A DNA stretch of 63,645 bases. Source: an uncultured Deinococcales bacterium (GTDB lineage: Bacteria; Deinococcota; Deinococci; Deinococcales; JAAFIG01). A model generated the notes under the pieces. The model was given only the letters and a program-made list of their open reading frames with translations, ran no database searches and was not told the origin of the DNA. A program made the translations under genes and the position numbers. Position 1 is the stretch's first letter; each line of letters opens with the position of its first letter. This document shows, one piece after another, positions 32,414 through 32,662 of this stretch. Location: contig CAXTTL010000005.1 in assembly GCA_964247135.1 (NCBI GenBank), forward strand, positions 1 through 63,645. The letters run 5' to 3'.

Positions 32414-32662
32414 ATGAACAGATTGTCGTCTTTTGGTCGTTCTTCATCCGAATCCTCGCGGTTGGGCAAGGTTCTTATCGGTCTAGCAGTTTGCGTTTTG
32501 GCAGGGACTTCAGCTTTGGCTGGTCGTAGTGGTATGTGGGCTGACCGCGCACCAACAAAAATGATTGAGGGTCGCAGTGGTATGTGGGCTGACAGTGCAC
32601 CAACAAAAATGATTGAGGGTCATGGTCAAATGAAGATCATTCGCAAGCACAAATCAAGGTAA
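32414..32662 (+). CDS. Secreted repeat-containing precursor peptide (putative signalling peptide)
   Basis: AGAGGGAG RBS; signal peptide ending ..TSALA, followed by 2 x GRSGMWAD(R/S)APTKMIE; own terminator. Confidence 0.8.
   Translation: MNRLSSFGRSSSESSRLGKVLIGLAVCVLAGTSALAGRSGMWADRAPTKMIEGRSGMWADSAPTKMIEGHGQMKIIRKHKSR
32522..32617 (+). repeat. 2 x 48-nt tandem coding repeat
   Basis: 32522-32569 and 32570-32617 are nearly identical. Confidence 0.9.

Follow-up and report, generated by a model that had tools for sequence, protein, structure and literature searches.

What does it mean that two proteins encoded in one locus, a protease of the S8 family and a small, apparently secreted protein, share several exact copies of the heptapeptide GRSGMWA? 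The question is raised by the open reading frame (ORF) of 82 amino acids (aa) at positions 32414..32662 (+ strand) of a 63,645-nucleotide (nt) stretch of DNA, hereafter the window, which is contig CAXTTL010000005.1 of the assembly GCA_964247135.1 from an uncultured Deinococcales bacterium. An earlier note, made from the letters alone, had described this small ORF as a multi-core precursor peptide. The features described there are all present where the note places them, and its interpretation is borne out in part. The analysis presented here indicates that the small ORF very likely encodes a real secreted protein which is functionally tied to the S8 protease through the shared unit. The more specific reading that we prefer, and to which we assign a probability of about one half for the entire chain of events, is that the small ORF encodes a two-core precursor which the protease would cut into octapeptides sensed by TPR proteins.

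The small ORF and the motif it shares with a protease

As read from the ORF listing and the sequence, the predicted secreted two-core precursor has the layout MNRLSSFGRSSSESSRLGKVLIGLAVCVLAGTSALA / GRSGMWAD RAPTKMIE / GRSGMWAD SAPTKMIE / GHGQMKIIRKHKSR. Residues 1-36 (32414..32521, +) resemble a signal peptide on inspection, with the basic residues R3, R9, R16 and K19, an 11-residue hydrophobic core (VLIGLAVCVLA) and TSALA in front of Gly37, and thus the first GRSGMWA indeed begins directly after an A-x-A motif, as the earlier note had it. Core 1 (GRSGMWAD, 32522..32545, +) is followed by spacer 1 (RAPTKMIE, 32546..32569, +), which resembles the SPAVMD preceding the first unit of the protease, and core 2 (GRSGMWAD, 32570..32593, +), placed after KMIE as described before, by spacer 2 (SAPTKMIE, 32594..32617, +), the latter simply read from the sequence. 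Both cores belong to the direct repeat D1 with its unit of 48 nt; the two 16-residue units represent an in-frame 48-nt tandem duplication with 94% identity. A degenerate third copy, GHGQM, had been proposed as well: the basic C-terminal tail GHGQMKIIRKHKSR (32618..32659, +) does follow the second KMIE, but its likeness to the core is limited to G1 and M5, and it may be a decayed third unit.

The claim that the gene has its own ribosome-binding site and terminator holds up. A Shine-Dalgarno-like sequence, AAGAGGGAG (32400..32408, +), is located 5 nt before the ATG, and a terminator-like hairpin followed by a U-run (32692..32729, +; 11-bp stem; -18.9 kcal/mol; z = -3.8 compared to shuffled sequences) lies downstream, where a simple terminator scan missed it because its loop is longer than 8 nt. 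The sigma-70-like promoter match TTGACT-18-TAGGAT (32327..32356, +) is a consensus match only and carries no weight alone, given that the scan found 2 sites against 1.9 expected. The frames opposite the small ORF extend to 43 and 46 aa only. No match to Rfam was detected over 32050-32950 at E <= 1, the small ORF belongs to no Pfam, NCBIfam or PADLOC family, and in the ESM Atlas the best score was 0.83, to unnamed clusters and below the meaningful level. No RNA run matching the region was found among the sequencing runs listed, which included one DNA run with a word share of 0.06.

When the whole genome (5,091,702 bp, 386 contigs) was translated in six frames, four copies of GRSGMWA were found, confined to the small ORF and the S8 protease. 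The four copies differ in synonymous codons, serine being encoded by TCG or AGT and glycine by GGA, GGT, GGC or GGG; therefore, the peptide sequence rather than the DNA is conserved. A further SGMWAD on contig C259 was rejected as a chance match, being antisense inside a gene for a 406-aa protein. The analogous search with the 5-mer cores of six paralogous proteases (contigs C2, C4, C39, with two proteases, C87 and C316) revealed no partner small ORF elsewhere in the genome.

Repeat units of pro-subtilisins and their TPR partners

The S8 protease (27504..28823, +; Pfam Peptidase_S8, 9.1e-44) is a predicted lipoprotein pro-subtilisin. Its N-terminus carries the lipobox LLGGC, as do many of the listed relatives, which suggests that the precursor is tethered by the prodomain side. 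An I9-like prodomain (residues ~50-113) is followed by a repeat linker (116-142) and the catalytic domain (from residue ~150), with the triad D184, H227 and S375 invariant in an alignment of 40 sequences. In the AlphaFold2 model built from this alignment (mean predicted local distance difference test score, pLDDT, 83.4), the prodomain (50-113, pLDDT ~90) and the catalytic domain are confidently modeled and the repeat segment (116-142) has a pLDDT below 50, so the latter is predicted to be a disordered linker. The top Foldseek matches of the model are unautoprocessed pro-subtilisin E (3whi) and pro-Tk-subtilisin (2z2z and 2e1p), over ~400 aligned columns, which identifies the protein as a pro-subtilisin whose repeat units fill the junction between propeptide and mature enzyme; despite the I9-type prodomain recognized by AlphaFold2 and Foldseek, the Pfam scan of the protease gave no I9 match. 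With the V-P that we take to mark the N-terminus of mature subtilisin as an anchor, the canonical junction would fall no more than ~3 residues from where the last unit ends. The motif thus appears to be primarily the protease's own junction sequence, a point that the earlier note missed, as it did the family-wide occurrence of such repeats together with TPR-output genes and the absence of the small ORF from the orthologous loci.

The junction of the window protease (27870..27941, +) consists of three tandem 8-aa units in the context ...SPAVMD-GRSGMWAF-GRSGMWAF-GQTAMWAE-GVYQAVPENT..., where the motif follows AVMD, as previously observed. The two identical GRSGMWAF units differ in 5 of their 24 nt. 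The third unit had been considered simply degenerate, which is not the case given that a protein with 82% identity (P0005) contains GQTGMWAE three times; the other close orthologues, in the range of 79-82% identity, contain three (L021) or two (L022) copies of GRSGMWAD, and the first copy of the L022 protease reads GSSGMWAD. The window protease itself carries two types of units, GRSGMWAF twice and GQTAMWAE once, and looks, on the sequence, like an allele that mixes two 'pherotypes'.

The survey set included 83 related S8 ORFs in 76 loci from 41 Deinococcales genomes. At least two Trp residues spaced by 7-8 residues just before the catalytic Asp are present in 80 of the 83, a few of these probably being chance spacings, and an exact tandem 7-8-aa unit containing W is found at the junction in 62, for example SGSVSAWA (four copies), GRSNVWAG (four), GGKISMWS (three), DGSLGLWA (five) and GARWWAE (five). 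The inserts comprise ~25-40 disordered residues with 2-7 identical 7-8-aa units that abut head to tail. Amino acid-identical copies differ at the nucleotide level in 59 of the 62 repeat-bearing proteases, with up to 8-9 of 24 nt changed, among them switches between TCN and AGY serine codons. Because gene conversion would erase nucleotide differences between copies, it is selection that keeps the units identical. Among the best 150 matches in a representative library of 1.84 billion proteins, Trp periodicity was present in 132 and exact tandem units in 100; the unit sequences of these representatives are very diverse between proteins and identical within one protein. A search of genome contigs with the protease returned only the two orthologous loci from Deinococcales metagenome-assembled genomes. 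In one of the surveyed loci (L087, G004:C70, 6531-14937), three W-repeat proteases of ~610-640 aa are encoded in tandem with the unit SGWNSWV in common; none of the three has an adjacent TPR gene by the survey criterion given below.

Two of these loci encode small secreted ORFs of their own, each with a strong Shine-Dalgarno site and each repeating the unit of the adjoining protease at 8 of 8 positions. In L025, the small ORF reads MKKKMLVALTVSLLSLGFSTSVAGKYQGSSPTTD-GRSNVWAG* and the protease contains four copies of GRSNVWAG; in L026, the small ORF reads MKNLRKAFIAALVLVGTASADSFGSQGDAPAGGVHMD-GKISMWSG* and the protease contains three copies of GKISMWSG. Both small ORFs end exactly one residue past W-[AS] (...TTD/GRSNVWAG* and ...VHMD/GKISMWSG*). 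The stop codon fixes the C-terminal boundary of the unit and the tandem arrays fix both boundaries; therefore, the unit is an octapeptide that starts with Gly. The previous proposal that it begins at Gly is thereby supported by its length of 8 residues, by the head-to-tail arrays of the proteases and by the exact C-termini of small ORFs in two unrelated lineages. These small ORFs are unrelated to that of the window, and each has a single core and lies next to its own protease. Exact 7-mer matches between protease units and small frames were detected in 3 of 80 cognate unit-locus pairs vs 2 of 6000 non-cognate pairs, and in both non-cognate cases the unit of an orthologue matches the small ORF of the window. 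Whole-genome pattern scans gave matches in 6 of 13 genomes, which were confined to the cognate protease, the small ORF of G040 and one antisense chance match; GSVTAWA in G011 was rejected as a chance match that is antisense inside a gene for a 128-aa protein.

The L026 small ORF has homologues. Altogether four L026-type matches were identified among the 125 Deinococcaceae genomes searched; comparison of the core with the protease unit shows 8 of 8 identical positions in one, 6 of 8 in two and a decayed core in the remaining one. One Deinococcus small ORF (P0003, 45 aa) is labeled in its source as 'Spy/CpxP family protein refolding chaperone' without support from the sequence, which probably reflects an error of annotation. 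In the small ORFs of all families, the core comes after an acidic residue (TTD/G, HMD/G, HTD/G, QTD/G and MIE/G), and so does the first unit of the proteases of the window (AVMD/G) and L025 (AQME/G), in agreement with what the earlier note had claimed for the internal first copies; the closest library relative has VMN/G. No leader similarity between the three families of small ORFs is visible by eye, which suggests independent recruitment.

Downstream of the window protease, a cytoplasmic protein with TPR and HD-GYP domains is encoded (28829..30775, +; Pfam HD_5, 1.3e-37, and TPR_12, 3.4e-29); it is the conserved partner of the protease and a candidate peptide sensor. The arrangement of S8 and TPR-HD-GYP genes recurs in both orthologous loci and in most paralogous loci. 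When the nearest ORF of at least 250 aa on either side of the protease was considered, a TPR protein was found beside 56 of the 83 proteases, downstream of 48 (47 of these on the same strand and most within less than 200 bp) and upstream of 10, and beside 12 of the 13 closest relatives of the window protease. The domains fused to TPR vary and include HD-GYP, HD-GYP+GGDEF, GGDEF, GGDEF+EAL, HATPase_c, HisKA-HATPase-REC, CHAT or none; in nearly all partners, the output is of the HD-GYP, GGDEF, EAL or kinase type or is lacking. In the genome analyzed here, a TPR neighbor of this kind is present for 7 of the 9 proteases with junction Trp motifs and for none of the 6 S8 ORFs without junction repeats, 2 of which adjoin AAA_16-TPR regulators. 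A constant putative TPR sensor with swapped outputs, linked to a peptide that is hypervariable yet homogenised, appears to be the signature of a ligand-receptor pair. Complex prediction for TPR residues 1-440 (19-row alignment) and the mature small protein (37-82) scored 0.01, the mark being 0.32, which counts neither for nor against binding.

Several neighbors depart from this scheme. Two of the upstream TPR neighbors, those in the window and L021, belong to the BTAD-AAA-TPR regulators and are not TPR-output proteins. The one in the window (23803..27522, -; BTAD, AAA_16 and TPR by Pfam) is divergent from the protease, has orthologues in L021 and L022 and, judging by their N-termini, probably starts near 27354. 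Large regulators with AAA_16 and TPR are also located upstream of the S8 genes in L105 (8790-11777, -) and L110 (8650-11988, -) and occur upstream of S8 genes without junction repeats, the BTAD domain being present in the window, L021 and L022; an AAA_16-TPR regulator with S8 is thus a second recurrent protease-TPR pairing in this genome. The TPR partner (L049, 9779-12730, +) of a W-repeat protease with four copies of GYSAWSG has a fused caspase-like CHAT domain rather than a kinase or cyclic di-GMP domain. Among the close relatives, only a protease with five copies of GSVTAWSG, in L037, lacks a TPR partner; it is followed by a 1091-aa eCIS_core protein (9081-12353, +).

A proposed peptide signal and its alternatives

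Under the preferred reading, the small ORF would encode a Sec-exported precursor in which a signal peptidase cut at ALA/G exposes Gly37, leaving a mature small protein that holds two GRSGMWAD octapeptides with 8-residue spacers between. Given that the repeat junction is where a subtilisin cuts itself, the S8 protease likely cuts both its own junction and the precursor; it would do so after hydrophobic-W-[A/S]-x at the unit boundaries, freeing octapeptides. In the precursor, a cut after W-A-D would free GRSGMWAD from core 1, and core 2 would need a second cut, after KMIE. The octapeptides might then act as a diffusible signal and be taken up into the cytoplasm, where the TPR domain of the co-transcribed-looking TPR-HD-GYP protein would bind them, modulating HD-GYP activity; perhaps, the BTAD-AAA-TPR regulator binds them too. 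Extracellular proteolysis or cell density would in this way be coupled to the turnover of cyclic di-GMP (c-di-GMP), and the small ORF would be an accessory precursor gene that increases the supply of peptide or places it under separate regulation. The basis for this scheme is in silico and consists of the gene signals, the identity of the motif in the two genes and its uniqueness in the genome, the selection on the peptide, its position at the junction, the linkage to TPR genes and the independent parallels in other lineages; from these, we infer that the precursor is exported, that all the cuts occur and that the peptide is taken up, is bound by TPR and affects HD-GYP. As a tentative generalization, possible rather than probable, the Deinococcales W-repeat pro-subtilisins could be bifunctional, being proteases and at the same time multi-copy pheromone precursors, with the junction octapeptide ('pherotype') sensed by the co-encoded TPR protein that drives c-di-GMP or phosphorelay outputs, and with small secreted ORFs repeatedly and independently recruited as extra precursors.

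The gene order of the locus bears on the role of the small ORF. In both orthologous loci from the same genus, the BTAD-AAA-TPR gene (-), S8 and TPR-HD-GYP are directly followed by an aminotransferase gene, whereas in the window a 2.1-kb insertion that both these loci lack, with the small ORF and a divergently transcribed MFS transporter gene (30830..32083, -; Pfam MFS_1, NCBIfam TIGR00900), separates TPR-HD-GYP from the aminotransferase. Apart from itself, the small ORF matched in the 41 related genomes, at E < 1e-4, only the protease repeat regions of G005 and G003, from the same genus. The small ORF therefore appears to be a young, species-specific gene.

A number of observations weigh against the preferred reading. 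First, the small ORF is dispensable and rare: given its absence from both orthologous loci, the S8-TPR module works without it, a search among 5.8 billion proteins of similar and shorter lengths returned only the small ORF itself, and the survey of 76 loci revealed unit-bearing small ORFs in only 3. Second, the correspondence between core and unit is imperfect. In two Deinococcus genomes, the core and the protease unit agree at 6 of 8 positions (GKMSMWAG vs GRISMWAG and GRMSMWAG vs GRINMWAG), and in the third Deinococcus genome the core of the small ORF is decayed; the 2 of 8 mismatches in the former two imply that identity of core and unit is not obligatory. Many paralogues have low-complexity units such as GWSTWGS, which resemble a linker more than a specific signal, and the residue before the proposed cuts varies (D, F, E, G, S or T), which is unusual for the P1 position of a subtilisin. 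Third, 27 of the 83 proteases lack a TPR neighbor, ~10 of them being at contig ends. The TPR protein of the window and the others with inspected N-termini have no signal-peptide-like start, which means that sensing would require import of the peptide. The locus encodes no importer; the genome contains 26 matches to SBP_bac_5 (Opp/Dpp-type), none of them in the locus, which makes peptide uptake possible and is a necessary but not sufficient condition for it. Finally, the W-repeat protease of L025 is split by a frameshift (10527-10847, -, and 9299-10591, -), with the lipoprotein signal and prodomain in one frame and the repeats and catalytic domain in the other, and the matching small ORF is intact.

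The main alternative, which we consider less likely, is that the motif is the protease's own autoprocessing or recognition sequence and that no signaling is involved, the small ORF being a secreted substrate or pseudo-substrate. The tandem units would then make the junction redundant, or open to stepwise trimming, and would tether the catalytic domain to the lipid-anchored prodomain. The product of the small ORF could be a competitive decoy or, by resembling the tail of the cleaved propeptide, could inhibit the protease as a product does and so tune its activation. The linkage of the TPR-output gene would have some other cause, for example control of protease expression. In favor of this explanation, the units coincide with the propeptide/mature junction in a pro-subtilisin fold, hydrophobic-W-[A/S]-x fits the P4-P1 preferences of subtilisin, and in the single-core small ORFs the unit forms a free C-terminus, as does the tail of a cleaved propeptide. 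Moreover, the 6 of 8 matches in two genomes are more easily reconciled with a tolerant active site than with a specific receptor, and low-complexity units are common. However, subtilases usually read about P4-P1, and the 2-7 copies agree at all 8 positions even though their synonymous sites have diverged heavily, a degree of constraint that exceeds what cleavage alone explains. Furthermore, the units are hypervariable between close orthologues, the partner with its constant TPR module and variable outputs follows the pattern of ligand sensing, and short unstructured peptides are generally weak protease inhibitors.

An improbable alternative is that the peptide is unrelated to S8, for instance a cationic antimicrobial or envelope-active peptide that is exported, or tolerated, via the MFS transporter, with the motif as a relic at the DNA level. 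The shared, species-specific insertion of the small ORF and the MFS gene, the strongly basic C-terminal tail and the lack of relatives are compatible with this possibility. Nevertheless, it is the protein sequence of the motif that is conserved, its codons differing synonymously from those in the protease, and hence the motif is no raw DNA relic; it occurs nowhere else in the genome, and two other, non-homologous families of small ORFs carry the unit of their own protease. That the small ORF is a chance open frame or a decaying fragment, as its orphan status and the lack of any matching protein family might suggest, is highly improbable in view of the Shine-Dalgarno site at ideal spacing, the signal-peptide-like N-terminus, the hairpin (z = -3.8), the in-frame 48-nt duplication, the opposite-strand frames of only 43 and 46 aa and the exact yet codon-divergent motif, for which the chance expectation, estimated from typical residue frequencies, is far below 1 per genome.

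Relation to known systems and surroundings of the locus

In its proposed working, the system is closest to the RRNPPA systems (Rap-Phr, PlcR-PapR, NprR-NprX and AimR-AimP). The RRNPPA propeptides are described (PMC11343458) as proteins of 50-120 aa that are exported by Sec and processed by extracellular proteases to pheromones of 5-10 aa, present in 1-4 copies that are identical or slightly different. Tandemly duplicated pheromones are included, the mature peptide is often C-terminal, and once imported by Opp it reaches its receptors, which are cytoplasmic TPR proteins (PMC11343458). With its 82 aa, the small ORF is within the range of 50-120 aa, and the multi-core layout, for which the earlier note had invoked pheromone precursors, fits the description of multi-copy propeptides (PMC11343458). 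The likeness covers a small predicted-Sec propeptide, a multi-copy 8-aa unit, a cytoplasmic TPR partner and specificity that diversifies between close relatives. The differences are equally clear. RRNPPA systems are described from Bacillota and their mobile elements, whereas the present system belongs to Deinococcales. RRNPPA receptors have a helix-turn-helix (HTH) or Rap-type N-terminal domain, whereas here TPR is combined with HD-GYP, GGDEF, EAL, kinase or CHAT domains, with no HTH detected in Pfam. The RRNPPA propeptide gene adjoins the receptor gene, but the small ORF of the window starts 1.6 kb past the end of TPR-HD-GYP, with the opposite-strand MFS gene between, and the small ORFs of L025 and L026 flank the protease rather than a TPR gene. 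Also unlike RRNPPA, the main array of copies is inside the protease, the protease gene is part of the cassette and the small ORF is optional. The Phr peptides are matured by subtilisin, Epr and Vpr. No sequence homology to RRNPPA systems was detected in Pfam, NCBIfam or the search of 5.8 billion proteins. Given these differences in receptor architecture, gene adjacency, phylum and homology, the present system is not a member of the RRNPPA family.

Other comparisons concern parts of the system. Pro-subtilisin E and pro-Tk-subtilisin share the I9-type prodomain followed by the S8 domain, and the motif is positioned where their propeptide tail enters the active site, but the known pro-subtilisins have a single junction, as opposed to the repeat insert at the junction and the lipoprotein anchor on the prodomain side observed here. 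The yeast prepro-alpha-factor is a multi-copy pheromone precursor with spacers that is cut by an S8 protease, Kex2; this functional analogy differs in that the system is eukaryotic, with dibasic Kex2 sites, a G protein-coupled receptor and repeats that are not embedded in the protease. Enterococcal sex pheromones derive from lipoprotein signal peptides and are released by Eep. They similarly represent peptides embedded in an exported lipoprotein precursor and are by-products of its maturation, but they come from the signal sequence, whereas the units described here are in tandem at the prodomain/catalytic junction. Cyanobactin PatE, with PatA/PatG, combines a multi-core precursor and recognition flanks with S8-type proteases. 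In contrast, the window S8 scores 64.7 bits against the NCBIfam PatA/PatG model TIGR03895 (cut-off 421.05), and the cores of the window are linear and have no Cys/Ser/Thr heterocyclisation pattern. Seven proteins were scanned (BTAD-AAA-TPR, S8, TPR-HD-GYP, MFS, aminotransferase, a MucB/RseB-like protein and the small ORF), and no heterocyclase, macrocyclase, radical SAM or like enzyme is among them; the statement that no modification enzyme of ribosomally synthesized and post-translationally modified peptides (RiPPs) is visible nearby is thus confirmed for these proteins. A reading as a defence system was also rejected, PADLOC giving generic S8 and TPR similarity only, and the anti-phage S8 protease (IetS/IteS) in particular, with a PADLOC IetS match of 3.1e-07 over the generic S8 core and an NCBIfam IteS score of 25.9 bits against a cut-off of 900. 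The system is neither a cyanobactin-type RiPP system nor a known defence system.

A full-text search of the literature, which did not extend to most subscription journals and hence leaves the absence unproven, revealed no peptide/TPR/protease system in Deinococcus and no repeat-bearing subtilase junction. As far as the searched literature shows, peptide signaling via cytoplasmic TPR receptors has been described for Bacillota and mobile elements, and the family of repeat-bearing pro-subtilisins with TPR signaling proteins is large and apparently undescribed. If the preferred reading is correct, it would be a large peptide signaling family outside Bacillota, in which numerous parallel peptide channels of Deinococcales, diversifying rapidly, would feed into kinases and c-di-GMP enzymes. 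A zymogen that doubles as a pheromone precursor would represent a new coupling of enzyme secretion or activation to cell-cell signaling, and the repeat units would suggest ligands, open to testing, for hundreds of TPR sensor proteins that are now orphans. Even if no signaling is involved, a homogenised tandem autoprocessing junction accompanied by matching secreted mimics would represent a new way of regulating subtilases.

Further downstream, the window contains a cluster of the envelope-stress type (34086-37977). It includes the MucB/RseB-like protein (34086-34931, -; by Pfam), two ORFs that by eye resemble ECF (extracytoplasmic function) sigma factors (35335-35922, -, and 36065-36697, +) and a 427-aa ORF (36694-37977, +) which, also by eye, is a possible anti-sigma factor.

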